DNA of 64,000 nucleotides from Escherichia coli (GCF_030384885.1 NZ_CP128615.1), one strand, 5' to 3'; positions 1,263 to 27,677 are shown, counted from the first letter of the stretch. Numbers and translations: made by a program. Notes: generated by a model from the letters alone, not told the origin.

Positions 1263-2003
1263 TCACCTCAGGGGAGGCAGTGTACGCAGGATCTCCGCAG
1301 CATCCCGCCCGTCACCTGTGAAAGGCACTGCCAGCGTGGCAGCCATATCCAGTGCAAACACCCGCGTATAAACCTCCATCGAACGTGGATCCCTGTGACC
1401 AGCCAGTGCCTGAATGACTTTCCGGGGCTGGCGGTGATAGAGCATGTGCATGATATAGCTGTGCCGGAAGGTGTGTGGTGTGACCGGAATCGAAAAGTGT
1501 ACCCCGTCAGCTTCGGCCCGTCTGACAGCCTGCTTCAGCCAGTTGCGCATGGTTTCATCGGTCACGGCCCATAATGGTTCACGACGACGGGGCCGGGTGG
1601 TGATCATCCAGCTTTCCATCTGCCTGACATAGCTTATATCTGTCAACGGAACCAGGCGCACTTCATCTTTTGGCGGGCGTCCGCGTCGCGCACGCACTTT
1701 TTCGGACAGGATCCGCACAAACGGTCTTACTCCATCCAGGTCAAATGATTCCGGCGTCAGCATCCGGGCTTCGCCAATACGCATTCCGGTATTCCAGAGG
1801 GTGGCGAACAGCATATGGTGACGCTGATCCGGCATATAGAAGAGAAGGGCACTCACTTCCGGGGCCAGCAGGTAGGCCGGTGTGGCCCCCGTGGAAGTGG
1901 CCATTCTTCTAAGGGAGAGCGCTGTTGCAAAATCCACCCCCGGCGCAATGGGTAACAGGGAAACGCGTTCTGGTGAATTCTGCAGGGGAATGACATTGTT
2001 CAT
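1263..2003 (-). CDS. int: Tyrosine site-specific recombinase (phage integrase family), RepFIB-associated
   Basis: 246-aa ORF with C-terminal HTFRHSY...LAGH...Y catalytic region; paralogous to the ORF at 26886-27677. Confidence 0.8.
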
Positions 2004-2827
2004 GAGTTATTTTTCACGTAGCACACGCACTGTTTATGGATACAGGTATTCTGACCTGAACGCCCGGATCCTTCCACGACAATAAATCGCAGCGCGCGGA
2101 TCCTTTTGTTTGCTTATCACGCATTATTGCGGGTAAAACCAAATACGTAAAGGTATGTTTTGCAGCAGGGATCCCGTATTAAGCCAGTCGTGGCGCGGGC
2201 TGAGGGCTGGTTTGCCGTTTTTGGGAGAAATGGGGTAATGCCAGGGCAAAGATGATCGCAAGGAAAGGAGAAGAATACACAGAGAGGAGAGTTGCGCTAC
2301 GTGAATTCTGGCCCGGGACGTCACCCGTCCCCCTGACCGTTTGACTTTACTCAGGAAGGTTGCAGACTCAACATAGTGACTGATTTATATGTAATCCTGC
2401 CAATGATTAATATAAAAAATAATAATGATTATGCAAAAAATTACTTTCGATAAGATGTATATAATTACAAAACAAGAAAATATATGTGCCTGAAATATAT
2501 CATGCTGAAGATATGAGCTTATATAAGTACCTTATGTATTGCCTGATATACTATTTTCAGAACGGCATGTACATGAATCTGACTCATGATTGCCACTCTC
2601 TTATTTTTTAAGTCCTCGCAAATACAGATAAGTTCTGGCTATAGAACAAGAAAGTACTTTTTAGGAATTTGCATGTGGGTTAACATTTTTTTTGCTATAA
2701 AATACATACAGTTATGTTATCACTTTGCGTTTTGTGCTTAGATCAAAAAAGAATATTCTGATTTTGATAATGTTGAAGGTATTCTGTAAAAAAAATCATT
2801 ATTTATTTTCATCAATTTTGTTAGCGT

Positions 2828-5800
2828 TTGTTTTTATTATCTATTATGAAAGAATTAAAAAAGTTTAATAGATATGTCATGTGTTTCTTTTTGGGGGCTC
2901 GCTTAGCATACGCCGAAAGTATTGACGGTAGCAGTACCATTAATAATAGGGATATCTCCGGATCATTAAATATAGGGGTTTGGAAAGATGCAAGTGTTAA
3001 CATTAATGGCACTGTAAATATTAAACAATATTTTTCGGTAGCTACTTGTAATGGTCAATCAAGCACCTGCCCTACTGGTGGATTAAATGCATCAGCAAAT
3101 ATTAATAACTCTGCAAAGGTAGGTGCAAGTGTTACTATTGTTGGCGACTCTTCAAAGGGAATATTAGATATAGATGGTGGTAGCTCTCTATATACACAGC
3201 AATTATGGGTCTCTGGAAATGATAACGACAAAACCAGTAATTTCAGTGATGACAGTAATGGTTCATTGAAAATTAACAATGGAAGCAATGTTTTTGTCGT
3301 ATTATCTCAAGATAATACCCCATTTAAAGATAACCCGATAAAATGGGATCAAAAAATTATTTCACAAGGAAATAATATAACAGATGGGACGGTTTCCTCC
3401 GGGGATTTAGTCTTGGGTAAAACTGGCAATGGTATTATTGACATAGATAACAAATCAAGACTAGATGTAAAAAATGATGTGGTTGTATCTACGGGGGTCG
3501 ATGGCATTCCTAATGAAAAACCTTCGCTTATAAATATAAATAATGAAAGTGATTTCTTGATTCATGGAAACATGAAAGGAGGGATTTCTGCTGCAGGCAA
3601 GTTACAGTTAAATATGGATAGTAGTTCCAATCTGCGTGTTGATAACAATATTACTGTGGGGATTGGGAGTGGATCAGATATTTCTGTGAGTGCGGCTAAT
3701 GGAAGCTCTATATCTGCAACTGGTGATTTCACTGTAGCTACAGGAGATAATTCGAATGCTAATTTAAATTTAGATGCTTCAAACCTGACAGTGAATGGAG
3801 TTTCTACCATAGGAAGTGGAAATGGCTCCACAACTAAATTTGATATTCAGAATAGCTCTGTTGTAACAAGCGGCAGTGGTATGACTTTGGCTAAAGGTAA
3901 GGGTACACAGGCCAATATAAATATATCCTCTTCGAAGTTAAATACTGGTTCGCTATCAGTTGGTGAGGGAGAGGCTGCTAAAGTCACAATGACCGGAAAT
4001 GGAGCTACCGTTAGCACCGGTAATTCCTTCACTGTTGCAAAAGGTAATAATGCATCCGCGACGCTGGATTACACTGATTCGGAAATTGATATCGGTAGTG
4101 GTTATATCGGAGAGGGCGACGCTGCTGAGACCCAGCTGGAGCTGAATAATTCGAAACTGACTGCCAGTGATAAGGTATTTATCGGGCAGGGAGATACAAC
4201 CCAAACAAACCTGACATTAAATAATCATTCGTCAGTAAATGTGTCCGGTGAGATGTCAGTGGCCCGGGGAAGTTCTGCTTCGGTTGATGTGACTGTTACT
4301 AATGCAATGTTGTCTGCTGACTCTCTGTCTCTTGGTGGAGGAGAAGCTGCTAAAGTCACAATGACCGGAAATGGAGCTACCGTTAACAGCGGTAATTCCT
4401 TCACTGTTGCAAAAGGTAATAATGCATCCGCGACACTGGATTACACTGATTCGGAAATTGATATCGGTAGTGGTTATATCGGAGAGGGCGACGCTGCTGA
4501 GACCCAGCTGGAGCTGAATAATTCGAAACTGACTGCCAGTGATAAGGTATTTATCGGGCAGGGAGATACAACCCAAACAAACCTGACATTAAATAATCAT
4601 TCGTCAGTAAATGTGTCCGGTGAGATGTCAGTGGCCCGGGGAAGTTCTGCTTCGGTTGATGTGACTGTTACTAATGCAATGTTGTCTGCTGACTCTCTGT
4701 CTCTTGGTGGAGGAGAAGCTGCTAAAGTCACAATGACCGGAAATGGAGCTACCGTTAACAGCGGTAATTCCTTCACTGTTGCAAAAGGTAATAATGCATC
4801 CGCGACACTGAATTACACTGATTCGAAAATTGATATCGGTGGTGGTTATATCGGAGAGGGCGACGCTGCTGAGACTCAGCTGGAGCTGAATAATTCGGAA
4901 CTGACTGCCAGTGGTAAGGTGTTTATTGGGCAGGGAAATACAACCCAAACAAACCTGACATTAAATAATCATTCGTCAGTAAATGTGTCCGGTGAGATGT
5001 CAGTGGCCCAGGGAAATTCTGCTTCGGTTGATGTAACAGTCACTAATGCAGTGCTGTCTGCTGACTCTCTGTCTCTTGGTGGAGGAGAGGCTGCTAAAGT
5101 CACAATGACCGGAAACGGAGCAACGATTAGCAGCGGCAATACTTTCACGGTCGCAAAAGGTAATAACGCATCTGCAGCGCTGGACTACTCTGATTCAAAA
5201 ATTAATATCGGTAATGGATATATCGGTGTGGGCGAAAAATCTCATACATTACTAAAACTGGACAACTCAATTTTCCATGCCGCTGGGAATATTGATATAG
5301 GTAAAGGCAGCTCTACTATAGCTACTGTTTCTGTCGGGGCTGGTAGTAATATGTCAATAAAAGGGAATGCTAGTATTGGCGTTGGAGATCAGGCTAAAGC
5401 AAAGTTTTCAGTAAAAGATAGTGTGCTGAATATAGGTAGTAGTCTGGTTCTCGGACAGGGGAATAGTACCGAAGCAGAAATGTCTGTTGAGCATTCTCAG
5501 CTTTATAGTGGTAGCCTGTTGCTTGGGACGGCTAACAATGCTGTCGTTTCTATGGATGCTAATGATGCAGGGATATCTGTCGTGGGAGATTATATAGTAG
5601 CAAAAGGTGATGGTTCAGAAGCTACGTTGATTTATAAAAACTCAGATATTAATCTTGGGAATGGTATACTAGGTGCTGGTTCCGGAGTAAAAACAGATTT
5701 ATCATTGGATAACAGTAAATTTGTTGCATCTGATGGAATAATCATCGGTGAAGGTGATAATGCCATAACTAATCTTTCTATCTCTGATCACTCTGTGTTT

Positions 5801-7783
5801 AAAGGAGAACGTATAAATATTGGTAATGGTGCATATTCAAAAAATTCTATAAGTATAACCGGAAATTCCATATTTGATTTCGGATCATCTCAGGAATCAA
5901 CCATTGGTGAAGGTGATTACAGCCAGTCGTTAGTTACCATTAATGATGCATCAGTTTATGGTGATGGTTCATTAACTCTGGCAAAAGGTAATAATAGTTT
6001 TGCAGTACTGAATCTTCAGGATAATGCAGTGACTAATGCCAACAACATTTCACTTGCTACAGGACTGGGCAGTAAAGCAATCGTGAATGTTAGTAATATG
6101 AATTCCGGACAGTTCAATCCTGTATCTATGGGAGCAGGAGATGGTTATGCGGAAGTAAATTTTGATGGTGTTAATGGCTATACACTCTCAACTAATTTCA
6201 TTTGTATGGATTCCGGTTCATGTGCAGACACTGTCATAAATGTAAACAGAGGGACAGTTTCTCTGTCAGGAACAAATGACTGGAAAGGGCAGATAAATGT
6301 TTATGACGGAACCCGACTGGATGCAAGGGGGAATGATGCCGTTGATGGTATACTGAATGTCAGCAAAGAAGCACAGGTTGACTTTAACGGATACTCGCAG
6401 CATATGACAGGGATAGATAATAAAGGGATGATTTATCTTTCTGACGGAAGTGCTTCATCAGATGTGTATCTGGATAAAGATTATGTTGCACATGATGGTT
6501 CCGGTGTACAGTTCGGGATTTTCGGGCAGAAAGAGGCGGATGTGATGCATGTTAAAGGTGATACATCCGGGAGTTCAGGTATAGTTGTCACGACAAACAG
6601 TAAAAATAAAATAAAGAAAGGTGGCGACATTCTTCTTGTTGAGGTTAATGGGGACTCATCAGGTAGTTTTTACCTTAACTCACTGATTAAGAATGGTAAG
6701 GAGTATAAGGTGACAGGTGACTACATTGATGTGGGGGCCTGGGAGTATGCGCTGAACAAGAAAAGGAAGAATTGGTATCTGAGTGTGGATATGCGTCCTG
6801 AGCCAGGTGCGTTTATAAACAATAGTAAAAGTATGTTAGATATGTTTGCTCTACAACGGTATGACATACCCGGGCAACATCGTTATCCTACATTGTTTGA
6901 AAACTTATATAACAATGGGATGTGGATTCAATTTAACAACAACTCAGGTAGTAATAGTGAGGTGTATGATAATCTCAAGACCAGTTATAGTTTAAATACT
7001 ATGATGATTGGAGGGGATATATACAATTGGACTGATGGATATAACTATTCACATATCGGGATAATGGGCGGGATGGGGAGTGCCGCTAACAAAACAACGT
7101 CAACAAATAATAAAAGAGCTACCGGAAATGTAGACGGTTATACTCTTGGGCTTTATCATGTATTTCAACAAAATATCAGTGATGGACTAAATGAGTCAGA
7201 ACGTCAGGGGCTGTGGACTTATTCGTCTATACAATACATGGATTATGATAACAGCGTCAGTTCAACAAATAATTTCAAGGCTAATTATGGTGTAAATGGT
7301 TTTCGCCTGACAGGTGAGGTTGGTTATCTAAAAAATATAGGTGGCATACAACCAAGCGATTTCTACGTTGAACCTAAGTTATACCTTTCGCATACTGAGT
7401 TGTCTGGAGGTGTAGTTGAAGATCTTCAGGGAGGGAAAATAACTTATCCGAATTCGCTAACTATTATTGAACCAGGAGTATTTTTCTCTTATCGAAAAAC
7501 TCATGAATCGACTTCCAATGATGAAGCAATGTTTAAAGATTATATAAAACAATCTGTAGTCGATGCATGGTTTGGTGGGGGGTATTCATTTAAAACTGGA
7601 AATTATAGTCGTACTAACTTTGATTCAGATATGGTTGAATATAATACATCGGATAATTTCGCTCTTAAGAGTGGTGTTGAATTTGAATTTTTGAAGGATG
7701 CACGTCTTTTATTAACATCCTCATACTCAATAAATAATGATCGCAACTTGAGTTTTATTCTTGGTGGCAATTATTATTTTTAA
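2828..7783 (+). CDS. Autotransporter (type Va) adhesin-like protein with repetitive beta-helical passenger and C-terminal beta-barrel
   Basis: 1651-aa ORF; N-terminal signal-like segment ending LAYAES (start may be the Met at 2846); Gly/Asn/Ser/Thr-rich repeats; C-terminus ends in aromatic ...NYYF typical of autotransporter barrels; AT-rich. Confidence 0.8.
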   Translation: MFLLSIMKELKKFNRYVMCFFLGARLAYAESIDGSSTINNRDISGSLNIGVWKDASVNINGTVNIKQYFSVATCNGQSSTCPTGGLNASANINNSAKVGASVTIVGDSSKGILDIDGGSSLYTQQLWVSGNDNDKTSNFSDDSNGSLKINNGSNVFVVLSQDNTPFKDNPIKWDQKIISQGNNITDGTVSSGDLVLGKTGNGIIDIDNKSRLDVKNDVVVSTGVDGIPNEKPSLININNESDFLIHGNMKGGISAAGKLQLNMDSSSNLRVDNNITVGIGSGSDISVSAANGSSISATGDFTVATGDNSNANLNLDASNLTVNGVSTIGSGNGSTTKFDIQNSSVVTSGSGMTLAKGKGTQANINISSSKLNTGSLSVGEGEAAKVTMTGNGATVSTGNSFTVAKGNNASATLDYTDSEIDIGSGYIGEGDAAETQLELNNSKLTASDKVFIGQGDTTQTNLTLNNHSSVNVSGEMSVARGSSASVDVTVTNAMLSADSLSLGGGEAAKVTMTGNGATVNSGNSFTVAKGNNASATLDYTDSEIDIGSGYIGEGDAAETQLELNNSKLTASDKVFIGQGDTTQTNLTLNNHSSVNVSGEMSVARGSSASVDVTVTNAMLSADSLSLGGGEAAKVTMTGNGATVNSGNSFTVAKGNNASATLNYTDSKIDIGGGYIGEGDAAETQLELNNSELTASGKVFIGQGNTTQTNLTLNNHSSVNVSGEMSVAQGNSASVDVTVTNAVLSADSLSLGGGEAAKVTMTGNGATISSGNTFTVAKGNNASAALDYSDSKINIGNGYIGVGEKSHTLLKLDNSIFHAAGNIDIGKGSSTIATVSVGAGSNMSIKGNASIGVGDQAKAKFSVKDSVLNIGSSLVLGQGNSTEAEMSVEHSQLYSGSLLLGTANNAVVSMDANDAGISVVGDYIVAKGDGSEATLIYKNSDINLGNGILGAGSGVKTDLSLDNSKFVASDGIIIGEGDNAITNLSISDHSVFKGERINIGNGAYSKNSISITGNSIFDFGSSQESTIGEGDYSQSLVTINDASVYGDGSLTLAKGNNSFAVLNLQDNAVTNANNISLATGLGSKAIVNVSNMNSGQFNPVSMGAGDGYAEVNFDGVNGYTLSTNFICMDSGSCADTVINVNRGTVSLSGTNDWKGQINVYDGTRLDARGNDAVDGILNVSKEAQVDFNGYSQHMTGIDNKGMIYLSDGSASSDVYLDKDYVAHDGSGVQFGIFGQKEADVMHVKGDTSGSSGIVVTTNSKNKIKKGGDILLVEVNGDSSGSFYLNSLIKNGKEYKVTGDYIDVGAWEYALNKKRKNWYLSVDMRPEPGAFINNSKSMLDMFALQRYDIPGQHRYPTLFENLYNNGMWIQFNNNSGSNSEVYDNLKTSYSLNTMMIGGDIYNWTDGYNYSHIGIMGGMGSAANKTTSTNNKRATGNVDGYTLGLYHVFQQNISDGLNESERQGLWTYSSIQYMDYDNSVSSTNNFKANYGVNGFRLTGEVGYLKNIGGIQPSDFYVEPKLYLSHTELSGGVVEDLQGGKITYPNSLTIIEPGVFFSYRKTHESTSNDEAMFKDYIKQSVVDAWFGGGYSFKTGNYSRTNFDSDMVEYNTSDNFALKSGVEFEFLKDARLLLTSSYSINNDRNLSFILGGNYYF
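3952..5230. repeat. Tandem array of about 3.4 near-identical 372-bp (124-codon) coding repeats inside the autotransporter passenger
   Basis: Protein repeat LSVGEGEAAKVTMTGNGATV...NAMLSADS recurs; DNA copies at about 4256-4627 and 4628-4999 differ by only a few bases; antisense ORFs recur at 372-nt spacing. Confidence 0.9.
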
Positions 7784-7829
7784 TCGTTACTGGTGAGGGT
7801 TAGCAATCGTCCAGCAAATTATTTGCAGG

Positions 7830-8102
7830 ATGATTGCTATATTCTGTCATTGGTTTTTTGAGGTAACAATGGTAAGATATCATGGCGAATTTACATACTA
7901 TGTTTATCAACAATCTGGACGTTACTTTTTTTGTAAGAAGCTAACGAAAAAGAGAGATACATCAAATTGTAATCATCTTCATATAATTCGAGAATTATCC
8001 TTCAATGAGGACGAGTTAGAATTAATAGATTTCAGCACAGACGGTTTGGACGCAAATGATAAAGAAATAATCAGGGGAATGATTGATGTGTTGAAAAAAT
8101 AA
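7830..8102 (+). CDS. Hypothetical protein
   Basis: 90-aa ORF in AT-rich DNA; no recognisable motif. Confidence 0.25.
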   Translation: MIAIFCHWFFEVTMVRYHGEFTYYVYQQSGRYFFCKKLTKKRDTSNCNHLHIIRELSFNEDELELIDFSTDGLDANDKEIIRGMIDVLKK

Positions 8103-8224
8103 ATATGTAAAAAAAGAATGTTTTATCAAATGTAACATATTTTCTTTTTTGTGCATGTATCTACCATAATCAAAGTAAATATATGCTTTGTATGTTGTTG
8201 ATTCGAATTAAATAATTTCCGACA

Positions 8225-8425
8225 GTGTATATGATCGATTATATGTTTTGGATAGGGGTTGTACTTTGGTCTACAGTAATAGTCATGTGGTTTTATGATA
8301 ACAAGGCATCATGCTCTGGACTTTTTGCCTTAAGTATATTTATATTTTCAGGTGGAGTTATGATTATGTTGTTTTTAATATCTTTTTTATATGGTGTAAT
8401 ATCAGCGTTAGGCCTTGCGGTATGA
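8225..8425 (+). CDS. Hypothetical small membrane protein
   Basis: 66-aa ORF, two hydrophobic segments. Confidence 0.3.
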   Translation: MYMIDYMFWIGVVLWSTVIVMWFYDNKASCSGLFALSIFIFSGGVMIMLFLISFLYGVISALGLAV

Positions 8426-8528
8426 AATTAATCATTGCGGTTGATTTATTCTCAAGTTGAACTTAAAGAAATCATGCTTATGTAAATATACTATTAAAAG
8501 ACAAAAAGAAGCCATTTAACCTGGAGGA

Positions 8529-9224
8529 GTGATGTATAGAGTTAATCATATTATGAGAACAATAAATGAAATGAGTTCTTATACTCCGCACATGAAAGTA
8601 AACAGAATTGCTGAACGGTTGAGTAAGGTGCAAAAAATATCTTTTTGCATCTCTGTTATTTCTTTTTTTCTTCTTGCCATAATTACTTTGACATATGGGC
8701 CGTTTAATACAAAAAGTAACTTGAGTTTTATTAGCGCATTATCTCTTTATTTTATTAATGTCATTATGGGAGTTACATATTTATCAGTTCCTGTAATTAA
8801 TACAATAAAGTATATATATAATTTTAAAGGGGAGGTGGTCAATGAATTAATATATGACATTGATAGTGATGAGCAACATATTGAAGCATTGTTACCTTAT
8901 TCATTAGAAGAGTTGACATATGTGTCAAACTGTATACAGGTAAGAATTCCCAAAATAAAATCAAAATGTTTCTTATGGGGAGGCGGGAAAACAGCAATTA
9001 TATCAATTTTATGCCTATCGTATTCGGCTATTTGTATCGTTAATGGAGGTAGCATAGATGGTATTTTTGTTGGGGAGACTGGTGATAAAATTATTGTCGC
9101 CATCATGTTTTTTATACTTTACACATCATTGATGAATATGTTTTTCAAACAAAAATTGCTATATTTACAAAATTTAAAAATGATAATAGATATGACTATA
9201 AAGATAAAAAGAAATTTCACATGA
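8529..9224 (+). CDS. Hypothetical multi-pass membrane protein
   Basis: 231-aa ORF with several hydrophobic helices; GGAGG RBS-like sequence upstream. Confidence 0.4.
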   Translation: MMYRVNHIMRTINEMSSYTPHMKVNRIAERLSKVQKISFCISVISFFLLAIITLTYGPFNTKSNLSFISALSLYFINVIMGVTYLSVPVINTIKYIYNFKGEVVNELIYDIDSDEQHIEALLPYSLEELTYVSNCIQVRIPKIKSKCFLWGGGKTAIISILCLSYSAICIVNGGSIDGIFVGETGDKIIVAIMFFILYTSLMNMFFKQKLLYLQNLKMIIDMTIKIKRNFT

Positions 9225-9865
9225 CTGCTACTCTAAAATAAAACAACACATGGGAGACTGTCTATTATTATTAATAACGAGTAACATTTGTTATTGCCAT
9301 TTATGGTGCTCCCGGGATCAGTTTTAACCATAAGCAAGAAAATGTTTCTTTGAACGGTTAGACATCACAAATGAGCGTCTGCCAAAAGTTGATGTAGCGC
9401 TTGCGGAATGTGTTGAGATTATATAGGGAAAGAACTACGGGGAATTATTATTGCCAGGCTTTCTCCTATGAATTTTAGCCATATCAATAGACCTTTGCTC
9501 TCAGTAACGCAAAGAGAGCATCTTTACTGATTGAAGGTAGTCAAGCGACATATGGTCACTTATTTTCTCATGTGTCGCTTGACACTATCCTGAAGTTTTT
9601 TAAGTCGATTTACGTCACCCAAAATGAAAAACTCCTTTGCATGAGTATTCATAATAATATCACAATGGTAAAGCTACATGACAGACATCTTAACTTAGTC
9701 AAGAGAGTACATAACAACTTTGCTATTACATATATTCAGGGTTGTTTGTAGTGGTTCACAAAATCAGGACACTGGAATAACCTGTTTCCACTTTTCTTCA
9801 TGTAAGCAAGGCGATAAACCACCATTGTTTGTATGAGGTCGATAAACGTTGTAATAACAATTTAT

Positions 9866-10117
9866 CTACTGCTTTATATCGCGTACTGCATGACTAAAAT
9901 CACCATAACCACCCTTCGCAAGCCATTTACTTTTAAATCTGTGAAAGACTCTTCCCATCGGCGAATTATCCAGGTAATTCCCTCTGCGACTCATACTTTG
10001 CATCGTCTCATAACGGCAGAGTAAAATTTTGTATTTATTGCTTTTATATTGAACACCTTGATCTGAATGCAACATCAGGTGGCCATCACGCGGTTGTGTT
10101 TCCTGAGCACTATGCAA
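9866..10117 (-). pseudogene. IS3-family transposase (OrfB) C-terminal fragment
   Basis: [10 protein letters not shown]...[15 protein letters not shown] integrase-core remnant; no intact element. Confidence 0.5.
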
Positions 10118-10177
10118 GTAAACGGCTCAACAGAACAGTATTGATATTTACTGAGCGGCCAGATCAACTTTTCAGGG

Positions 10178-17258: not shown

Positions 17259-17262
17259 AAAT

Positions 17263-18282: not shown

Positions 18283-18318
18283 ATTAATGCTAATGTATGC
18301 ATACATTAGCATTAATGA
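18283..18318. repeat. 36-bp perfect palindrome
   Basis: CATTAATGCTAATGTATGCATACATTAGCATTAATG is its own reverse complement. Confidence 0.7.
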
Positions 18319-18352
18319 TGAAGGAAAAGAATAACAATGGCAGTCAACCCAC

Positions 18353-18826: not shown

Positions 18827-18829
18827 ATA

Positions 18830-19687
18830 TCATCCCTCATTAATGCTAATGTACGCATACATTAGCATTAATGAGGGATGATATGCAGCAATAGCGTTTA
18901 CCACCCCAGCCGTCATCCGTGCGTCGGCGATCGCTGAGTGTGCCAGCCCTTCCCAGGTCAATCCGGCCTGGCTGGCAGCACTGGCCAGTGAAATCGTGCC
19001 ATAGCGGTTGGTGACCCCATAATATCCTGCAGCCAGCTCCATCGCACAATATACCGTCATTTCTTCCAGCCAGTCAGCCGGATCTCTATGTGCGGCAGCA
19101 GTCTGTTTCAGAATGCGGATGTCGAACCGGGCATTAAAGATAATTACTGGTCGGCCCCCGATAGCATGACGCAGTTGCCGCGCCACATCTGTCCATAATG
19201 GTGCGCCGCAGAGAGCCTGCTCACTGATACCATGCACAGCGGCGGCCTGCGCCCCGATGGCGACCGTGGGCTTCAGTCTGGTTTCAAATACCACCTGACC
19301 GGACGCATTGGTCAGGCCGATTTCCAGGGCTTCCGTGGTATTGTCCAGTCCTGTTGTTTCAGTATCCAGAAAGAGCGGTGCCAGACTCAGCCAGTCATAT
19401 GCCTGCCGTGCCATCCGGCCACTGGTGCTGTTAAGTCTGGATAAAACGGAAAGTCGCTGGCCAGCCAGAAGTTGTTTACTCGTCAGTGGGCGTTTCTCAC
19501 GCATCGGAACACAGTCTGCAATTCGGTATACAGCGAACCTGTCACCATAAGTGTTTTTATACCACTTAACTGGCTCAGCACCGGGGGCTGGCTTCATTCT
19601 GAATTCATCGCGCAGACGTCCTTTCGAGAAACATCTGTTTTCGGCAATCGCCTGCGCACGTCTGGTGGCCAGCTCATCATTATTCAT
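18830..19687 (-). CDS. DnaQ-like (DEDDh) 3'-5' exonuclease with about 100-aa N-terminal extension
   Basis: Exo motifs FLDTETTGL, HGISEQAL and HSAIADARMTAGV in a 285-aa ORF. Confidence 0.7.
   Translation of the reverse strand: MNNDELATRRAQAIAENRCFSKGRLRDEFRMKPAPGAEPVKWYKNTYGDRFAVYRIADCVPMREKRPLTSKQLLAGQRLSVLSRLNSTSGRMARQAYDWLSLAPLFLDTETTGLDNTTEALEIGLTNASGQVVFETRLKPTVAIGAQAAAVHGISEQALCGAPLWTDVARQLRHAIGGRPVIIFNARFDIRILKQTAAAHRDPADWLEEMTVYCAMELAAGYYGVTNRYGTISLASAASQAGLTWEGLAHSAIADARMTAGVVNAIAAYHPSLMLMYAYISINEG
18832..18878. repeat. Near-perfect palindrome (about 46 bp) related to the one at 18283
   Basis: CCCTCATTAATGCTAATGTACGCATACATTAGCATTAATGAGGG; one central mismatch. Confidence 0.7.
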
Positions 19688-19732
19688 GGTTCTTGCATCT
19701 CCGTCAGACGTTTTTATATCCGGACAGCCCCT

Positions 19733-20014
19733 TTATGGCCACTTCTGTGCAGTATGCAATACACGCAGGATATACACTTTTCCCCACTGGCTATCGATCT
19801 CATAAACCAGAACAAAATGCGGGTAAATAACCAGTTCCCGGATACCTTCCACACGACCGTTGCGGCCTTTATACGGCTGTCCGGCCAGGCTGCTGGCTGA
19901 ATAACCAATCCGTTCGTCCAGTTCAATGGCGGCCATCAGGTTCTGCTCCGTAATGTATCCACGAATGCACTTCCTGTCCTGGCTGGCCAGTATGGTCCAG
20001 AATATCTCCATCAT
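19733..20014 (-). CDS. relE: RelE/ParE-family toxin (type II TA)
   Basis: 93-aa ORF; 4-bp overlap with the upstream antitoxin ORF; C-terminal ...VYILRVLHTAQKWP. Confidence 0.7.
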   Translation of the reverse strand: MMEIFWTILASQDRKCIRGYITEQNLMAAIELDERIGYSASSLAGQPYKGRNGRVEGIRELVIYPHFVLVYEIDSQWGKVYILRVLHTAQKWP

Positions 20015-20301
20015 TTACCGGCGACCTTCCTGCTCATTTCATCCCGCCATGCGGTCGCGGAGGATTCGACCATGTCATGTGGAAGCACATCACCGCGCCC
20101 GAGTTGCTGACGTCCTGCCTCAACCTGGTCACGGAACCAGGTATTATGCTGCCGTTCAACGGTCTGGCGCATAAAATCCCGGATTAACTGAGAGCCATTA
20201 CGGTCCATGCTTTTTGCAGCGGCCATAAAAGCATCCTTCAGTTCAGCGTCAATTCTTAAACTCATATTAACCTGTGTCATTTGCCATCTCGTCATTACCA
20301 C
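20011..20301 (-). CDS. relB: RHH antitoxin (RelB/DinJ/ParD-like)
   Basis: N-terminal MSLRIDAELKDAFMAAAKSMDRNGSQLIRDFM ribbon-helix-helix-like segment; true start may be the internal Met at about 20265. Confidence 0.65.
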   Translation of the reverse strand: MVMTRWQMTQVNMSLRIDAELKDAFMAAAKSMDRNGSQLIRDFMRQTVERQHNTWFRDQVEAGRQQLGRGDVLPHDMVESSATAWRDEMSRKVAGK

Positions 20302-20328
20302 GTATATACGCAGTATATAACGATTCAG

Positions 20329-20469
20329 ATATCGTCACCAGGATATGCCGCGTCAGCGGCATGGAAGGCGGCACGCTGTGGTTACATGTGATACTGGAGT
20401 AAAACCGCCGAAGCCCGGCGTAAGCCGGTACTGATTGATAGATTTCACCTTACCCATCCCCGGCCCTGC
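20329..20469. repeat. Direct repeat copy B (paired with 17800-17937)
   Basis: Same orientation and conserved core as copy A; sits between the antitoxin start and the TraC fragment stop. Confidence 0.6.
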
Positions 20470-20473
20470 TAAG

Positions 20474-21470
20474 CTACAGCTGGTTGTATTTCGCGAACTC
20501 CTTCGCACTCTGTTTGAGGATAATTTTGTAGGAGGAGTTACCCCATGCCGCGCGGGCAGCACTGGAAGCCTTGTCAGAGTCAAAGTCGACGATGTTCTGT
20601 GTGATGGTGATATAGGCACCGGTATGACGGCGGGCGGTACGGTAACCTTTCTCAATAAATTCACCGACCTTGTGATTTTTGAAGTCCAGCAGACGCCAGC
20701 CTTCATCAATGACGTTCAGTTTCTTGAGGTTACGCGGCGTGCGGTACATCCGGTTCTCAATGTAAATGATAAGGCTGAACATCACCGCAACCAGCAGGGA
20801 CGGACGGTCTTCCAGTCCGCCCAGCTCCAGCACCACCATTTTCGCATCATCCCGCAGGGACGGCTCATCGGAGTTGAAATACTGGCCATAAGTGCCGTTA
20901 GCAGTGTACTGGTCAAGCAGCACAATCATTTCGTCCAGACGGCTGCGGATGGTCGGTGACTCGGCATACTGCTCGCTGTCACTGGCGTTTTTCAGGAAAT
21001 CCACCACGTCATCAATACGTGCCCTGTTCTCTTTGGCCAGCCATGATGCCCTGACTGCCTGCAGCAGCAGACCTTCATGCACTTCATCCAGGTTACCGTT
21101 GGGGCTGGCCATCACCGACAGCTGGTCGCGGACACGCTCCGCTGACTGGTCAATATCGGTGATGTTCGCAAACGGGTTAAAGCGCAGGGTTTCACCGTCC
21201 AGATATACGCCCCCCATGTTCTCACACAGGGACTTGTAGCCATCCCCCATGTCGAACACCACGGCAAAGCCCCCGGAGTCCAGCACGCTGCGGATAAGTG
21301 GCTGTATCAGCCCGGTTTTACCGGCCCCGGAGGTGCCACAGACCGCCATGTTATAGTTGGTGTTATTCATCCCCCGGAAGAAAATATCGATAAACGCCAG
21401 CTGGTTACGGTAGGTGGGTGCCAGCAGACCTGCCGGTGTCAGGGGGTTATCCGCCACTACCCCAGATGTC
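20474..21470 (-). pseudogene. traC: Internal fragment of an F-type conjugative ATPase TraC (VirB4 family)
   Basis: Walker A-containing segment NMAVCGTSGAGKTGLIQPL and surrounding sequence recognised as TraC-like; both ends of the protein missing, no other tra genes in the window. Confidence 0.5.
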
Positions 21471-21884
21471 ACACCAGTCACCTCTTTTTGCGGTGAAATG
21501 CACAGTGATGATTTCCCTGACATCATCCGGTAATCCTTCCCAGCGACGCTGTCCAGTACCGCTCTGCAGCCAGAGTTTATGCAGCATCAGGCAGTTTTGC
21601 TCATCCAGCAGTACACCGTCCTGCAGGTATGTCAGCCAGCGGGTGAACGCGATATTCTCCGGCGATACAACGCCACGCCCGGCAGCCGTCAGTCCGGGGC
21701 ATGGTTCAAACCGCACATCTTCAGTGGTCTGCAGAAGTCCGGCACTTCCGGCCAGAAACAGCTGAATACCTTCATTTGTGGCGCGGCGATAAAGCGGTGT
21801 GACTGCACCGCTGGCCAGTCGTTTAATCTCAGCAATCTGTGCCGGTTCACCAGAAAAATGCATACGATTTGAGCACCAGTTTGG
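21447..21884 (-). CDS. Hypothetical protein
   Basis: ORF with GGAG RBS before the ATG at 21884 (MPNWCSNRMHF...); overlaps the TraC fragment by about 80 bp. Confidence 0.4.
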   Translation of the reverse strand, partial: PNWCSNRMHFSGEPAQIAEIKRLASGAVTPLYRRATNEGIQLFLAGSAGLLQTTEDVRFEPCPGLTAAGRGVVSPENIAFTRWLTYLQDGVLLDEQNCLMLHKLWLQSGTGQRRWEGLPDDVREIITVHFTAKRGDWCDIWGSGG

Positions 21885-22241
21885 CATGGGAATTCTCCTC
21901 TCACATGCGGCCTCTATCAGGCCGTGCCGCACCTGTAACCGGGCGACCGCATACGAATGCAGGTGCGGCCCCGAAGCCGCAGCGCGTGGAGGAGGAACGA
22001 CGAAACGTGACCGGGTGAGGAGGCCGGCGACAGCGACACACTTGCATCGGATGCAGCTCGGTTAACGTGCCGGCACGGCCTGGGTAACCAGGTATTTTAT
22101 TCACAGAACCGTGCGCAAAATGCTGTGGATAAGCTGGACACAGCAGTCCACAGCAGGCATACAGCCACACCCTCAGAGAATTGAGCGTTTTTTAGTCACA
22201 ATAATGACATTTGACTGTGTGTGGATTCAGTTATTAGAATA

Positions 22242-22257
22242 CTGTATATACATACAG
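22242..22257. promoter_or_regulatory. LexA (SOS) box upstream of impC
   Basis: CTGTATATACATACAG matches CTGT-N8-ACAG; TTGACT -35-like hexamer at 22211. Confidence 0.65.
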
Positions 22258-22280
22258 CAATAGAAAAGGGAGATGAGAAC

Positions 22281-22529
22281 ATGATCCGCATTGAAATTCT
22301 TTTCGACCGCCAGAGCACAAAAAACCTCAAATCAGGCACACTTCAGGCGCTACAGAATGAAATCGAACAACGTCTGAAACCACACTCCCCGGAAATCTGG
22401 CTGCGTATAGACCAGGGCAGCGCCCCGTCTGTATCTGTCACAGGAGCCCGCAACGACAAGGATAAAGAACGTATCATGTCTCTGCTGGAAGAAATCTGGC
22501 AGGACGACAGCTGGCTGCCTGCAGCATGA
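22281..22529 (+). CDS. impC: ImpC (DinI-like small SOS protein)
   Basis: 82-aa ORF from the ATG at 22281 with GGGAGA RBS; first gene of an imp/umu-type operon. Confidence 0.75.
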   Translation: MIRIEILFDRQSTKNLKSGTLQALQNEIEQRLKPHSPEIWLRIDQGSAPSVSVTGARNDKDKERIMSLLEEIWQDDSWLPAA

Positions 22530-22963
22530 GTACCGTTTATCACCGTCCGGCTGACCCTTCAGGCGATGACAGTTACGTGCGACCGTTGTTTGCCGATCGT
22601 TGCCAGGCCGGTTTTCCTTCGCCTGCCACTGATTATGCTGAGCAGGAACTGGATCTGAACAGCTATTGCATCAGCAGACCTGCAGCCACCTTCTTTCTGC
22701 GCGCCAGCGGTGAATCGATGAACCAGGCTGGCGTGCAGAATGGTGATCTGCTGGTAGTGGACAGGGCCGAGAAACCACAACACGGGGACATCGTTATCGC
22801 TGAGATCGACGGTGAGTTCACCGTCAAACGACTGCTGTTGCGCCCACGCCCGGCACTGGAGCCGGTTTCAGACAGCCCGGAATTTCGCACACTGTATCCG
22901 GAAAACATCTGTATTTTTGGTGTTGTCACTCACGTGATACACAGGACGCGGGAGTTACGCTGA
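22526..22963 (+). CDS. impA: ImpA/UmuD-like protein (LexA-type S24 peptidase)
   Basis: 145-aa ORF with Ser/Lys self-cleavage region (GESMNQAG...VKRL); 4-bp overlaps with both neighbours. Confidence 0.85.
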   Translation: MSTVYHRPADPSGDDSYVRPLFADRCQAGFPSPATDYAEQELDLNSYCISRPAATFFLRASGESMNQAGVQNGDLLVVDRAEKPQHGDIVIAEIDGEFTVKRLLLRPRPALEPVSDSPEFRTLYPENICIFGVVTHVIHRTRELR

Positions 22964-24233
22964 TGTTTGCACTGGCTGATATCAACAGTTTCTACGCCTC
23001 ATGTGAAAAAGTTTTCCGCCCGGACCTTCGCAACGAACCGGTCATCGTACTCAGCAATAACGATGGCTGTGTGATCGCGCGCAGCCGGAGGCAAAAGCCC
23101 TTGGCATCAGAATGGGGCAGCCCTGGTTTCAGGTGAGACAGATGCGCCTGGAGAAGAAAATACATGTATTTTCCAGCAATTATGCGCTGTACCACAGCAT
23201 GAGCCAACGGGTCATGGCTGTTCTGGAGTCGCTTTCTCCCGCAGTTGAGCCCTACTCAATTGATGAAATGTTCATTGATTTGCGGGGGATAAATCATTGC
23301 ATCTCTCCGGAGGTTTTTGGTCATCAGCTCAGGGAACAGGTAAAGAGCTGGACAGGACTCACCATGGGGGTGGGCATTGCGCCTACAAAAACGCTGGCTA
23401 AAAGTGCACAGTGGGCAACAAAGCAATGGCCACAGTTTTCCGGTGTGGTCGCGCTGGAGGCAGAAAACCGTAATCGGATCTTGAAGCTACTGGGGCTGCA
23501 GCCAGTTGGTGAGGTCTGGGGAGTAGGACGCAGACTGACGGAAAAGCTGAATGCGCTGGGTATTAACACAGCACTGCAGCTGGCGCAGGCTAACACGGCA
23601 TTCATCCGGAAAAACTTCAGCATCATTCTTGAGCGTACGGTACGCGAACTCAACGGCGAGTCCTGCATATCCCTGGAAGAAGCACCACCGGCAAAACAGC
23701 AGATTGTCTGTAGTCGCAGTTTTGGTGAACGAATCACAGACAAAGATGCCATGCACCAGGCTGTTGTTCAGTATGCAGAGCGGGCCGCAGAGAAACTACG
23801 TGGGGAGCGTCAGTATTGCCGGCAGGTGACGACATTTGTACGGACATCCCCCTTTGCAGTAAAAGAACCCTGTTACAGCAATGCCGCTGTGGAAAAGCTT
23901 CCATTACCCACACAGGACAGCCGGGACATTATTGCCGCAGCATGCAGAGCGTTAAACCATGTCTGGCGTGAAGGGTACCGCTATATGAAGGCAGGAGTCA
24001 TGCTGGCTGATTTCACACCATCGGGTATAGCGCAGCCGGGATTATTTGATGAGATCCAGCCCCGTAAAAACAGCGAAAAGTTAATGAAAACACTCGATGA
24101 ACTGAACCAGTCTGGAAAAGGGAAAGTGTGGTTTGCGGGGCGAGGAACCGCCCCTGAATGGCAAATGAAACGGGAAATGCTCTCGCCTTCGTATACAACA
24201 CAATGGACTGAGATCCCCATTGCTTCATTCTGA
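22963..24233 (+). pseudogene. impB: ImpB/UmuC-like Y-family polymerase, interrupted by a 1-nt frameshift near 23086
   Basis: N-terminal 57 codons (MFALADINSFYASCEKVFRPDL...NDGCVIARS) in one frame stop at 23136; the rest (MGQPWFQ...) continues in another frame from 23112. Confidence 0.8.
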
Positions 24234-24237
24234 TATA

Positions 24238-24666
24238 TCAGAATAATTTTTGCATTTTAAGGCGCACATCATTCATTGCCTCCTGCACCGAATCAGTAGC
24301 AGAAGGAGGCATTTTTTCAGCAGATTGCAAAGCACCGAGTTCAGTCAACACAGCTCTGATATCGGCCTGAGAAGGCTTCCATCCTGTCGTCTGACTGAGT
24401 AAGGTTACAACCTGATCTGCTGAAAACTCCTCGCTCAAAATGGCAGTCAGCAATACAGGCAGGCGAGGATCAAGTTGGTGTAACGCCATTCCAGAAATAA
24501 ATGCATTCCGGAACAGCTCACCACGCTCAGAACGCGGAACGGACTCTATCGCTTCCAAAGCTTGAAAGTCTGCAGCTTTTTCCGGATGCAGATAAAGTGT
24601 GAATTTTTTCCTTTTCCGTTCATCGTCCACAATATTACTCCTCTTTGAAAGCCGCGATAGCTTCAA
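24238..24666 (-). CDS. ParR/StbB-like partition adaptor (type II system)
   Basis: Small ORF directly downstream of the ParM-like gene; assignment by position and size. Confidence 0.5.
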   Translation of the reverse strand: MKLSRLSKRSNIVDDERKRKKFTLYLHPEKAADFQALEAIESVPRSERGELFRNAFISGMALHQLDPRLPVLLTAILSEEFSADQVVTLLSQTTGWKPSQADIRAVLTELGALQSAEKMPPSATDSVQEAMNDVRLKMQKLF

Positions 24667-25606
24667 CCAGTGCTGTCTGTGGCGACTCCATCATCACTAC
24701 TTTTTGCCCAAGATGGTGCCATGCCGTTTTTATCGAATCATAGATCAACGGGGCCCCACCACCGACAACATAAACACGATTCACATGATGAAAATCACCG
24801 AGCTCATTGACTACTTGCTCCCCCAGACTGGCAATAGCCCCCTCAATGGTATTAAGGACCAGATCAGTTTTTGTTTCGTCATTTATAACCTGCCGAACAA
24901 AGTCCGGGTCATTACGACGTTTAATCAATTCATCTGCAACGAGGAAACTGGTATCACTGGATGCCATGCGCAATGCACTCATTGCAGCTTTCGTAACTGA
25001 AGACACACCAATGCCAGAATTACCATGAATGGCACTTACAGAGTCAAATTGACCAACGATAACACCAACATCAAGCGTAGTGCCGCCAATATCAACTACC
25101 AGCGATTTTTCGAACTGACCAACTTTATCCATGACCAGACGAGAAAACACAGCTGGCAATGATTCAGGCATCACATCAACGTGTTCAATGGTGAAAACAT
25201 CGCCTTTATTAAGACGAATCGGCCTCATTAAATTCTCAATTTTACGCTGAATGTTGAGTTCATTTTTTTGACACTCTTTCGTGTAGAACTCACTGATAGG
25301 CAAAGTCACAGTCAATGATACAGGCTGAGGCGCTAATCCACTATTCAGTAAAGCGTGATGCACAGCTAACAGGTTAACATCCGTATATTGATACTCAATA
25401 TGAGTCGTAAGAATAGATTGGTTGCTAACTTCATCATACGTGTATTTTTTACCATCCAGTTCATAGTTAAATGTCTGGCGAATCCCTAACCCGTCAACCT
25501 TCCATCCATGACGAAATGAGTTTTGCGACAACGACTTACAGATTTTCCCATTGTCATTCCATGCCAACTTGATTGTTGTTGAACCATCATCGCAGTATAC
25601 GTTCAT
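24635..25606 (-). CDS. ParM/StbA-like actin-type partition ATPase
   Basis: 323-aa ORF with actin-fold phosphate motifs (CDDGSTTIKLAW, VVDIGGTTLDVGV, YVVGGGAPL). Confidence 0.8.
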   Translation of the reverse strand: MNVYCDDGSTTIKLAWNDNGKICKSLSQNSFRHGWKVDGLGIRQTFNYELDGKKYTYDEVSNQSILTTHIEYQYTDVNLLAVHHALLNSGLAPQPVSLTVTLPISEFYTKECQKNELNIQRKIENLMRPIRLNKGDVFTIEHVDVMPESLPAVFSRLVMDKVGQFEKSLVVDIGGTTLDVGVIVGQFDSVSAIHGNSGIGVSSVTKAAMSALRMASSDTSFLVADELIKRRNDPDFVRQVINDETKTDLVLNTIEGAIASLGEQVVNELGDFHHVNRVYVVGGGAPLIYDSIKTAWHHLGQKVVMMESPQTALVEAIAAFKEE

Positions 25607-25609
25607 CTA

Positions 25610-25830
25610 TAGCCCCTTAAATACTCAATCTGAGTAAATCACTGTTTCTGGTTGCAAGGTAATACTCAATTTGAGCACTATCATAGTTATGAAATCACAA
25701 AACACAAGTAATATTTATTACATCATATGACATACTTCATATTTCATACTTCATAAATATGAATGCATGTTGACACATCAGGTTACAGTGTCAAAATATC
25801 ATCATACTTCACACATCACATTTATGAGGT
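25610..25830. promoter_or_regulatory. Divergent intergenic region with direct repeats; candidate centromere/promoter for both partition operons
   Basis: Repeated CATACTTCAT / TACTCAATTTGAG motifs between divergently transcribed partition genes. Confidence 0.4.
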
Positions 25831-25834
25831 TGCA

Positions 25835-26479
25835 ATGATTACTGTAGTTGGTGGGAACAAAGGTGGTTCAGGGAAAACTACCATTGCATCAAACCTGGCT
25901 ATTGCTCTCGCAAATAAAGGAAGGGAAGTCTGCCTGTTAAACGGAGATCTACAACGAACAGCCGCAAAACATCATGCGGAACGAGAAGCTGCAGGACTGT
26001 TACCAGCAATAACCCTTGTTGAGAAATTTGATAACCTGACACAAACACTACAGGCTCTGAATGAAAAGTTCGATGATGTAATAGTGGATGTCGCAGGAAG
26101 AAACTCAAAGGAATTCATAACGAGTGGAGTTGTCGCACATCAAATAATTGCGCCACTACAGTGTTCTCAACCAGATCTGGATACTCTTACAGAACTAGAA
26201 CAACAGATAGACGCAATGCGTAACCTTAACCCGGAACTTAAGGTTTATTGTTTACAAAGTATGGCAACAACCAATCCGGTTTTGAGGGGAAATGAGAGAA
26301 AAGAATTCCTTGAATATCTTGAAGAATTCCCAACAATTCAAGTCCTGGATTCAGTTATTTGTTTCAGAAAAGTCTATCGCGATTGCATGAGCAACGGCAC
26401 CGGTGTAGTAGAAACGAACAATACAGCAGCCAGAGCAGAAATTGAACATTTAATGAATGAGGTATTTGGCCCATGGTGA
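25835..26479 (+). CDS. parA: ParA-family partition ATPase (small ParF-like, type Ib)
   Basis: Deviant Walker A VVGGNKGGSGKTT at the N-terminus; start taken at the ATG at 25835 after a GAGG RBS. Confidence 0.8.
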   Translation: MITVVGGNKGGSGKTTIASNLAIALANKGREVCLLNGDLQRTAAKHHAEREAAGLLPAITLVEKFDNLTQTLQALNEKFDDVIVDVAGRNSKEFITSGVVAHQIIAPLQCSQPDLDTLTELEQQIDAMRNLNPELKVYCLQSMATTNPVLRGNERKEFLEYLEEFPTIQVLDSVICFRKVYRDCMSNGTGVVETNNTAARAEIEHLMNEVFGPW

Positions 26480-26748
26480 AGAAACCCAGCCAGCAAGCAT
26501 TAAACAGAGCTGCAGTTACGGTAGAACAAGCAGAGGCTCTGGCTCAGCGCCTTGCGGATAAACCATACGGCGCGCCGGAAAAACTCGAACCAGAAAAACA
26601 ATGTCGGACGACAATCTCTCTTGGTGAAAGCATGCTTGTCACAATAGAAGATCTGGCATTGAGGAATAAACGCAATGGTAAAGATCCAAAAAATGTAAGT
26701 GCCATCGTCAGAGTAGCCCTTGAGCAATACTTAAAAACACTAACGTAA
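26473..26748 (+). CDS. Small ParG-like DNA-binding partner of ParA (likely RHH)
   Basis: 91-aa ORF overlapping the parA stop; C-terminal AIVRVALEQYLK. Confidence 0.5.
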   Translation: MVKKPSQQALNRAAVTVEQAEALAQRLADKPYGAPEKLEPEKQCRTTISLGESMLVTIEDLALRNKRNGKDPKNVSAIVRVALEQYLKTLT

Positions 26749-26885
26749 TAATCAAGAAGTTATTACTTATGAAATCACACTTGTGAATTCACACTGTTTA
26801 AGCACCCTTGCATACAAGAGATCACATATTGCAGTGGTCTCTTCTTTTATAGAATAAATCACAATTCATAATTATGATTTGTGAC

Positions 26886-27677
26886 TTATGCGTGTCTGTT
26901 TTTCAGCATTGTGACAGCATCGGACTCAGGCATCGAAAACTGCACCCGGTGCCGTGCAGCCACATCCAGCGCAAACACCTTCGTGTACACCTCTGTCGAA
27001 CTAATCGACTTGTGCCCCATCAGGCTCTGCAGCACCTTCAGCGGAATACCAGCATACAGCATATGCATCGCGTAGGAATGGCGGAAAGTATGTGGGGTAA
27101 CCGGAACAGAGAACGTCACGCCGTCGGCCGCAGCGGCCTCTACAGCTTCATTCAGCCAGGTGCGAACTGTGCGGTCGGTGATTCCCCAGATGCGCGCCTT
27201 CTCCATTCTTCCGGTTCGTTTGTTTCTGCGCTCCAGTGGGATTTTCAGCGTGGCCACCATCATCTGCAGTTGGCTGACGTATTGTGTATCGGACAGGGGA
27301 ACCAGGCGATGCACCTGACTGCCAGCAGGGACACGGCCTGCCGTTCTGGTCGCTTTTTCAGTCCGTTGTTTGAGCGTGGCCAGCTGTACGAACGGATATG
27401 GCGGCGCCAGAGAAAAATCTCCCCGCGTCAGCGCCAGCGCTTCGTTTATACGTGCGCCCGTGTTCCACAGGGTGGCCAGCAACATTTTGCGGTGCAGATC
27501 CGGTACATAGTGGAGCAGGGCGCTGATCTCCGGCGCCAACAGATATTTTGGTAATTCGTCCTGCACAAGTGCCATCTGACGTAGTGCCAGCGCAGCCGGG
27601 TAATCAATGGCAACAGGTAATGTTGCCGGAGGCGTTAAAAAAGAACCTGGCAGGGAAAGCAATTGTGGGCCACTCAT
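26886..27677 (-). CDS. Tyrosine site-specific recombinase (candidate multimer resolvase)
   Basis: 263-aa ORF with HTFRHSYAMH...LMGH...Y catalytic region; paralog of int at 1263-2003. Confidence 0.8.
   Translation of the reverse strand: MSGPQLLSLPGSFLTPPATLPVAIDYPAALALRQMALVQDELPKYLLAPEISALLHYVPDLHRKMLLATLWNTGARINEALALTRGDFSLAPPYPFVQLATLKQRTEKATRTAGRVPAGSQVHRLVPLSDTQYVSQLQMMVATLKIPLERRNKRTGRMEKARIWGITDRTVRTWLNEAVEAAAADGVTFSVPVTPHTFRHSYAMHMLYAGIPLKVLQSLMGHKSISSTEVYTKVFALDVAARHRVQFSMPESDAVTMLKNRHA

Follow-up and report, generated by a model that had tools for sequence, protein, structure and literature searches.

Two anciently diverged tyrosine recombinases on an Escherichia coli plasmid are very probably the Int/ResD pair already known from plasmid F

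Results

Int and ResD are paralogues along nearly their whole length

We analysed a 64,000-nucleotide stretch of an Escherichia coli plasmid (NZ_CP128615.1, assembly GCF_030384885.1), hereafter the window, which carries two genes for tyrosine recombinases. The open reading frame (ORF) listing gave int, encoding 246 amino acids at 1263-2003 on the minus strand, and resD, encoding 263 amino acids at 26886-27677, also on the minus strand. By its identity to the Int protein of plasmid F and its match to Pfam PF00589, int encodes the RepFIB-linked recombinase of the ResD family. The resD gene is intact, and its identity to F ResD and to the copy on plasmid pPK8568, together with PF00589, marks it as the orthologue of F ResD.

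Performing BLASTP, we found 118 of 243 residues identical between the two proteins (49%), with 60% positives and E = 2e-69. The alignment spans residues 17-241 and 20-260 of Int and ResD, respectively. Thus, the two are related along nearly their full length and beyond the generic catalytic motif. This agrees with a first-pass annotation of the window, which had noticed that the two ORFs share a catalytic region and an overall architecture while being clearly diverged. In the Pfam search, Int and ResD scored 54.6 and 67.9 bits against PF00589 (Phage_integrase; gathering score 27.1), which places both in the tyrosine recombinase superfamily. Aligning the proteins with each other and with XerD, we placed the Arg, the His-x-x-Arg, the His/Trp and the nucleophilic Tyr of the catalytic set; the catalytic Lys lay outside this mapping. 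These residues are R75, H177-x-x-R180, H203 and Y212 in Int, and R76, H196-x-x-R199, H222 and Y231 in ResD. The catalytic domain begins at about residue 45-50 in both proteins, so the N-terminal region is short in both. Neither protein is an XerC or XerD by the NCBIfam equivalog models, where scores ranged from 47 to 80 bits (best 54 for Int and 80 for ResD) against cut-offs of about 330. Against the NCBIfam models of the integron integrase IntI the scores were 36-62 bits, far below the cut-offs of 265-435, and only the C-terminal motif region was matched.

A codon comparison of int and resD gave 51% amino acid and 56% nucleotide identity, with a synonymous divergence (dS) of about 1.6. About half of the amino acid positions differ. 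As dS is saturated, the duplication is ancient. A distance tree and an identity matrix separated two old clades, Int and ResD, with 45-47% identity across them and 74-100% identity among the full-length members inside each. In the Int clade, identity to the window protein was 100% (rounded) for F, 93% for Klebsiella, 80% for Erwinia and 74-78% for Pantoea. In the ResD clade, the same matrix gave 100% for pPK8568, 91% for IncI plasmids and 85% for F. Inside each clade, the ratio of nonsynonymous to synonymous substitution (dN/dS) was 0.03-0.16 at a dS of about 1. It was 0.034 for Int against its Klebsiella orthologue and 0.05-0.09 for ResD. We conclude from these values that strong purifying selection maintains both genes. 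In summary, short tyrosine recombinases of this kind form one small family, of which Int and ResD are two anciently split branches.

Plasmid F carries the same pair

Plasmid F (NC_002483) encodes a 246-amino-acid recombinase beside RepFIB, at 35.6 kb, and the 268-amino-acid ResD after ccdAB in RepFIA, at 46.9 kb. The window Int is identical to F Int at 245 of 246 residues (99.6%). It is only 47% identical to F ResD, and it is therefore a paralogue of ResD and not ResD itself. Conversely, the window ResD matches F ResD at 221 of 244 aligned residues (91%, E = 3e-166), the first 20 or so residues accounting for most of the difference. It is 100% identical to the copy on pPK8568, where the operon is complete. 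Both genes are widespread. The int region matched at least 5000 plasmid records. A tblastn search of the plasmid collection with ResD likewise found at least 5000 records, with 8785 places among the matches listed and with two or three places in many single records.

The int gene belongs to a conserved RepFIB module that ends at a sharp junction

The RepFIB initiator gene repA (RepB/Rep_3 family) is an ORF at 1-978 on the plus strand. It has the same coordinates as the RepB family initiator of NZ_OP378626.1 and is homologous to that of F RepFIB. The int gene converges on repA, and the gap between their 3' ends is occupied at 976-1246 by the RepFIB iterons, which are ACAGCTTATAT-type repeats comprising the direct-repeat families D1-D3 and the inverted pairs I1, I2 and I5. 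Many plasmid records numbered from repA have int at identical coordinates, and in Klebsiella RepFIB-type plasmids int lies about 730 bp from repA. The layout of repA, iterons and int is thus common to F, E. coli plasmids and Klebsiella plasmids. Its orthology to F Int and its convergent position by repA and the iterons place the window gene in the RepFIB-linked Int clade. In an Erwinia relative, a Rep_3 gene with the same convergent arrangement stands 2.6 kb downstream. None was present within 4 kb in a relative from Pantoea ananatis, and therefore the linkage between int and repA is strong, not universal.

Alignments, clustering of alignment endpoints, a promoter scan and repeats defined a conserved 242-bp int leader at 2004-2245 (minus strand), which is a candidate region for an Int site. 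Upstream of int, five plasmids, one of which carries the 82%-identical Klebsiella version, are near-identical from the ATG to CCTGGCATTACC. Past CCTGGCATTACC the five are unrelated or mosaic. Sampling widely across the more than 5000 matches, we saw most alignments end at window position 2245 and a second group at 2310-2312. The homology of the RepFIB-int region of E. coli and Klebsiella ends at one nucleotide, 2245/2246, and the cargo past this junction varies. The most conserved block of the leader holds a promoter-like site found by the promoter scan, with a -35 hexamer TTTACG at 2151 and a -10 hexamer AATAAT ending at 2123. GGATCC boxes at 2061-2073, 2093-2105 and 2166-2176 flank these hexamers, and two of the three are conserved in Erwinia and Pantoea too. 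We infer that Int regulates itself at this leader and that 2245/2246 is a site-specific joint.

Around 2245 we found several weak inverted-arm candidates for an Int core site, none of which gave a definable site. No second copy of the junction motif was present in the window. A 17-mer at 2209-2225 had one other match at three or fewer mismatches (34658-34674, inside an rfsF-like site described below), and we did not rely on it. This 17-mer is part of a terminator-like hairpin whose stem varies between genera while its pairing is kept. A small ORF at 2124-2294, labelled 'hypothetical protein' or 'serine/threonine protein kinase' in related records, runs across the 2245 junction. Its 5' part therefore changes from plasmid to plasmid, and the ORF is probably no genuine gene. 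The cargo past the junction in the window includes an autotransporter ORF of 1651 codons (2828-7783).

The resD gene lies in a partition block shared by many plasmid groups

The annotation of 99.9% identical plasmids and Pfam searches showed that the block at 21458-28107 holds a DinI-like gene, umuDC/imp, parR-parM, a gene for a ParA/MipZ-like ATPase, an RHH gene and resD. The parR and parM partition genes (stbB/stbA-type) occupy 24238-25606 on the minus strand, as seen from the ORFs and from the annotation of the 99.9% identical CP056975.1 and of NZ_CP145680.1. On the plus strand at 25763-26748 follow the ATPase gene (Pfam MipZ/AAA_31/CbiA; annotated start at about 25835) and the RHH gene (CopG-type, RHH_1), which are also annotated in related records and converge on resD. 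A self-complementary, AT-rich palindrome covers the resD stop codon at 26854-26889 and is probably, to judge by its sequence, the resD terminator. A terminator-like hairpin follows the RHH gene at 26816-26843, and TGTGA/TCACA motifs recur in the convergent gap. The hairpin and palindrome features of this gap could be terminators or a binding site for a partition protein.

IncI plasmids have the same gene order as this block, with imp genes 99% identical to those of the window. The resD module occurs in IncI, IncFIA (F), IncFIB/FIC and IncR plasmids and in Klebsiella IncFIB/HI1B plasmids (see also PMC9412624). Relatives with an intact operon have resD as its final gene, preceded by a variable first ORF of about 90-115 codons and then by an ORF of 229 codons. 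In F and some IncI plasmids the operon is ccdA-ccdB-resD. The window keeps only a 3' remnant of the 229-codon gene (27674-28107, minus strand), which lacks the first 85 codons and has no Pfam match.

A mosaic break lies in the window at about 20477-21458, between the RepFIB-side accessory region and the F leading-region/imp block that begins at 21458. The accessory region (the autotransporter, an EAL-domain gene and others) is 99.9% identical to cattle E. coli plasmids up to about 20477.

An IS26-associated deletion probably separated resD from rfsF

We compared the window with loci from F (L003), the pPK8568 region (L007), IncI plasmids (L013 and L014) and a Klebsiella plasmid (L015), among others. 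Upstream of the intact resD operon lies a conserved block shared with the oriV-1/rfsF region of F. This rfsF block stands beside the operon in F, L004, L005, L007, L013, L014 and L015. Performing an endpoint survey of the pPK8568 region, we found that alignments coming from either side stop in a cluster at L007 5990-6020. This cluster coincides with a 28-bp inverted repeat at 5990-6017, AGATCCGTAA-CTGCCTTT-TTTCGGATCT. F has a site of the same kind at 45,922-45,949 (L003 15923-15950). Position 45,922 is the start of the RepFIA region described as 'containing two rfsF sites' (PMC4398462), and rfsF has been described as imperfect inverted repeats of 10-14 bp with a 6-8-bp spacer (PMC5587640). From the clustering of breakpoints, the F coordinate and this description, the 28-bp inverted repeat is likely rfsF.

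The window has no cognate rfsF and no conserved block directly upstream of the resD operon. Searches with the conserved rfsF/oriV-1 block and with an inverted repeat around TATATGTT gave zero matches in the window at three or fewer mismatches. The window matches the intact operons of L004 and L007 only as far as 28107; the equivalent position in L004, 4571, falls inside the 229-codon ORF at 4315-5004. Directly there begins IS26 (28108-28927, plus strand), identified by reading its terminal inverted repeats, by its transposase ORF at 28159-28875 and by annotation. Its 8-bp flanks, CTCCACAG and CCACCCAT, are unlike. Past IS26 lies an IncI-type segment with ibfC/ibfA (abortive infection) and DUF4238 at 28928-31126, where alignments end at 31124-31126. 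IncI plasmids carry this segment in the same orientation, about 1.3 kb past rfsF. Given the unlike flanks and the order of segments in IncI plasmids, the simplest reading of the sequence is an IS26-associated deletion of about 2.4 kb, which would have removed the operon start, the usual promoter region, the conserved block and rfsF. The joint between resD and IS26 is common to about 100 plasmid records.

Two displaced rfsF-like sites mark joints in the neighbouring defence island

The first-pass annotation had also proposed a search for cognate resolution sites near the two recombinase genes. For int, the 2245/2246 junction came without a core site, as told above. For resD, the native rfsF is lost to IS26, but two displaced rfsF-like sites remain on the plus strand, 3.4 kb and 7 kb from resD and without the accessory block. 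Site 1, ATCTCCGATT ATAGCTTT TTTCGGATCT, lies at 31120-31147 and has a degenerate left arm and a canonical right arm. Site 2, GGATCCGGTT TTGCCTTT TTTCGGATCT, lies at 34651-34678 and has perfect 7-bp inverted arms. The two have the same orientation, and each is found just upstream of a copy of vagCD. Copy 1 (31286-31929) is followed by gajA (32003-33565) and gajB (33550-34572), which together form a plus-strand Gabija segment at 31286-34572, assigned from annotations and PADLOC (GajA 1.5e-101, GajB 1.7e-47). Copy 2 (34862-35505, plus strand) is 85% identical to copy 1 and is followed by IS110 and by a type 1 BREX cluster at 38326-54366 on the minus strand. Both vagCD copies have a similar leader and an rfsF-like right half-site ahead of them.

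Homology breakpoints fall inside these sites. The 100% homology to pPK8568 begins at 34662, in the spacer of site 2; in pPK8568 itself it begins in the rfsF by the resD operon. The left half of site 1 is common to secondary sites of the IncI plasmids (L013 6695 and L014 6692), which end the ibfA segment there; their right halves and the DNA that follows differ from site 1. The right half of site 1 recurs in the rfsF of Klebsiella L015, where the same vagCD-gajAB segment follows. Similarly, the left half of site 2 is common to the end of the Klebsiella GajB segment (L015 at about 7545), and its right half differs. The 28-bp inverted-repeat sites of these loci include L013 3135, L014 3130 and L015 3987. 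In our endpoint survey of the Gabija segment, the second vagCD copy blurred the picture and left the right edge unfixed; Klebsiella L015 fixed it. In the window as in the IncI, IncF and Klebsiella plasmids, each left half-site stays with the segment to its left, and each right half-site, together with most of the spacer, stays with the segment to its right. Such reassortment of half-sites with a switch inside the spacer is the footprint expected of site-specific exchange. The segments joined at these sites carry defence and addiction genes, namely Abi with DUF4238, vagCD with Gabija, and vagCD followed by BREX. A literature search for a link of resD or vagCD to defence islands or cassettes gave nothing relevant.

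In F, a further rfsF-like sequence, AGTTCCGGTT-TTACCTTT-TTTCGGATCT, lies on the other strand at about 41,090-41,117 (L003 11091-11118), far from resD, and its left arm resembles that of window site 2. The defence island of the window as a whole extends over 28928-54366, from ibfA/ibfC and DUF4238 through vagCD and Gabija to vagCD and type 1 BREX. An IS110-family element (36847-37923) stands between vagCD copy 2 and the BREX cluster, which runs from brxL at 38326 through a WYL regulator gene ending at 54366. Past BREX, the DNA at 54400-64000 holds IS903B, an EamA transporter gene, tetA/tetR and a TnAs1-type Tn3-family transposase gene (61077-63887).

Discussion

The pairing of two related recombinases on this plasmid is real, was correctly seen by the first-pass annotation, and is already known. 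In all probability, the two proteins are the Int/ResD pair of plasmid F, and their joint presence reflects the ordinary modular make-up of IncF plasmids and no specific cointegration. As F already carries both Int and ResD, the pair says nothing specific about the origin of the present plasmid.

The likeness to F is closest for Int. The gene is essentially the same, is placed and oriented as in F with respect to repA and the iterons, and keeps its leader up to the common junction. The cargo past the junction differs, being the autotransporter in the window and hydrolase/ompP in F. The Int of the RepFIB region is also found in RepFIB-type plasmids of Klebsiella, Erwinia and Pantoea. ResD is reported to act as a resolvase at rfsF (PMC4398462, PMC9412624, PMC5587640). 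The window ResD is an orthologous protein of the same clade with the same catalytic residues, and the 28-bp inverted-repeat type of site is found at F 45,922-45,949 as well as beside the resD operons of IncI, IncF and Klebsiella plasmids. The surroundings of the two resD genes differ, however. F resD follows ccdAB beside oriV-1 and RepFIA, whereas the window resD follows an uncharacterised gene, stands beside parA-RHH and parMR with no adjacent replicon, and has had its operon start and native rfsF deleted by IS26.

Other resolution systems are more remote. RsdB of pSLT is a putative ResD-like multimer resolvase encoded late in a polycistronic six-gene operon, in which ccdAB and two ORFs precede rsdB (PMC5065971). 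The operon of Rsd/RsdB on the Salmonella virulence plasmids pSDL2 and pSLT resembles the intact orf-orf-resD operons, a likeness drawn by description only. The crs site of the Salmonella virulence plasmids has been described as 17-bp direct repeats plus an inverted pair. Cre/loxP of P1 and XerCD at cer/dif are likewise tyrosine recombinases that resolve dimers at inverted arms with a 6-8 bp spacer (PMC5587640). Their relationship to Int and ResD is distant, the N terminus of Int and ResD is much shorter, and the site sequences differ.

By analogy with ResD and rfsF of F, each enzyme would act on a plasmid dimer, in which its own site is present as two direct repeats, and recombine these. The reaction would follow the cycle of tyrosine recombinases, in which strands are exchanged in pairs over the short spacer that separates the inverted binding arms. 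Dimers would thereby become monomers, letting the partition systems segregate the plasmids. ResD of the present plasmid, if made, would have to use the displaced sites at 31120-31147 and 34651-34678. A reaction between these two would excise the 3.5-kb segment of vagCD and Gabija as a circle. We infer that ResD is still expressed and able to use the two remaining sites, whether for dimer resolution or for excision of the segment. The paralogy, the selection on int, the conserved leader and the sharp junction suggest that Int would likewise act as a resolvase or as a junction-forming enzyme near 2245.

Several points weigh against reading the two genes as a working pair of the F type. A literature search on the function of RepFIB Int gave nothing relevant and no experiment on its activity or site. 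The equation of the 28-bp inverted repeat with rfsF was derived from breakpoints and secondary citations. The window also lacks a second inverted repeat, GATGACAC-TATATGTT-GTGTCATC, which in the intact loci lies about 75 bp nearer resD; this repeat could stand in place of the 28-bp one as the site or be a further site, and may be the second rfsF. A loose 28-bp pattern had four strand-counted matches against a simulated mean of 0.98, which is not significant. As this count is uninformative, the case for the displaced sites rests on the perfect match at 34651 and on the homology breakpoints. Finally, the consensus scan of 26700-28300, which included the first 190 bp or so of IS26, found no promoter upstream of resD, its sole match overlapping the resD 3' end; ResD may therefore be silent.

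The first-pass annotation had taken the pair as the sign of a cointegrate of two ancestral replicons, each with its own resolvase: RepFIB would have contributed one, and a second replicon the other, as part of its partition/stability backbone. We regard this origin as unlikely, though parts of it stand. Int is tightly linked to RepFIB, being convergent with repA with the iterons between them and with a spacing that recurs, although it is only a putative resolvase. ResD indeed adjoins partition genes, in a block with parM/parR, a parA-like gene, RHH and umuDC/imp. Related plasmids are typed as multi-replicon (IncFIB and IncFIC, with or without IncFIA), old fusions may well lie at the root of multi-replicon IncF plasmids, and inter-plasmid exchange at rfsF has been proposed (PMC9412624, PMC8004404). 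Yet RepFIB is the only replicon in the 64-kb window, and the resD block, found in at least five plasmid groups, is unassignable to any one replicon. The split between the paralogues, with its saturated dS, is far older than these plasmids; F has both genes; and the visible joints are IS26 and the rfsF-like sites. The F-type pair therefore accounts better for what lies in the window than a specific fusion does.

A reading with a somewhat better claim, though still short of an even chance, is that the window resD is a stranded remnant without a role in maintenance, which would fall to Int, Xer or the partition systems. Its operon breaks off at 28107, the usual upstream region including the rfsF block is gone, the promoter scan of 26700-28300 was empty upstream of the gene, and the IS26 transposase gene points away from resD. 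Nevertheless, the intact ORF matches the pPK8568 copy, which comes from a full operon, at 100% identity, two rfsF-like sites remain in the window, and the IS26 joint recurs in about 100 plasmid records, so that it is at least tolerated. RsdB of pSLT was still made after deletion of its operon promoter, suggesting internal promoters (PMC5065971). It is very improbable that either gene, or both, belongs as an integrase to an inserted mobile element of phage or island type, in spite of the database labels 'site-specific integrase' and 'phage integrase family'. With 246 and 263 amino acids and about 45 residues before the catalytic domain, the proteins have no arm-binding domain. Their plasmid-backbone contexts are fixed across thousands of plasmids, and ResD is 91% identical to a reported resolvase (PMC4398462). 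On these grounds we rejected a phage-type integrase. A recent duplication within this plasmid has the shared family in its favour and nothing more. It is refuted by the 51% amino acid and 56% nucleotide identity of the pair with its saturated dS of about 1.6, and by the near-identical orthologue that each copy has in F and other plasmids; we give it practically no weight.

Alongside the F-type pair, we tentatively consider, as a possibility that we hold to be somewhat less than even, that ResD is more than a dimer resolvase. Its 28-bp sites ([A/G]GATCCG-N14-CGGATCT) would then mark the joints of exchangeable segments set in an integron-like row downstream of the resD operon, and the RepFIB Int might do likewise at 2245/2246.

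Carriage of the RepFIB Int together with ResD is a standard feature of F-like plasmids and has little bearing on the history of this one. The separation of resD from its native site by IS26 offers a natural test of whether ResD needs its accessory region. The rfsF-like sites that stand exactly at the joints of anti-phage and toxin-antitoxin segments suggest that ResD-type recombination has a part in assembling and shuffling the defence islands of enterobacterial plasmids. If true, this shuffling would explain the variable cargo beside resD, and perhaps beside the RepFIB int, in otherwise similar plasmids.

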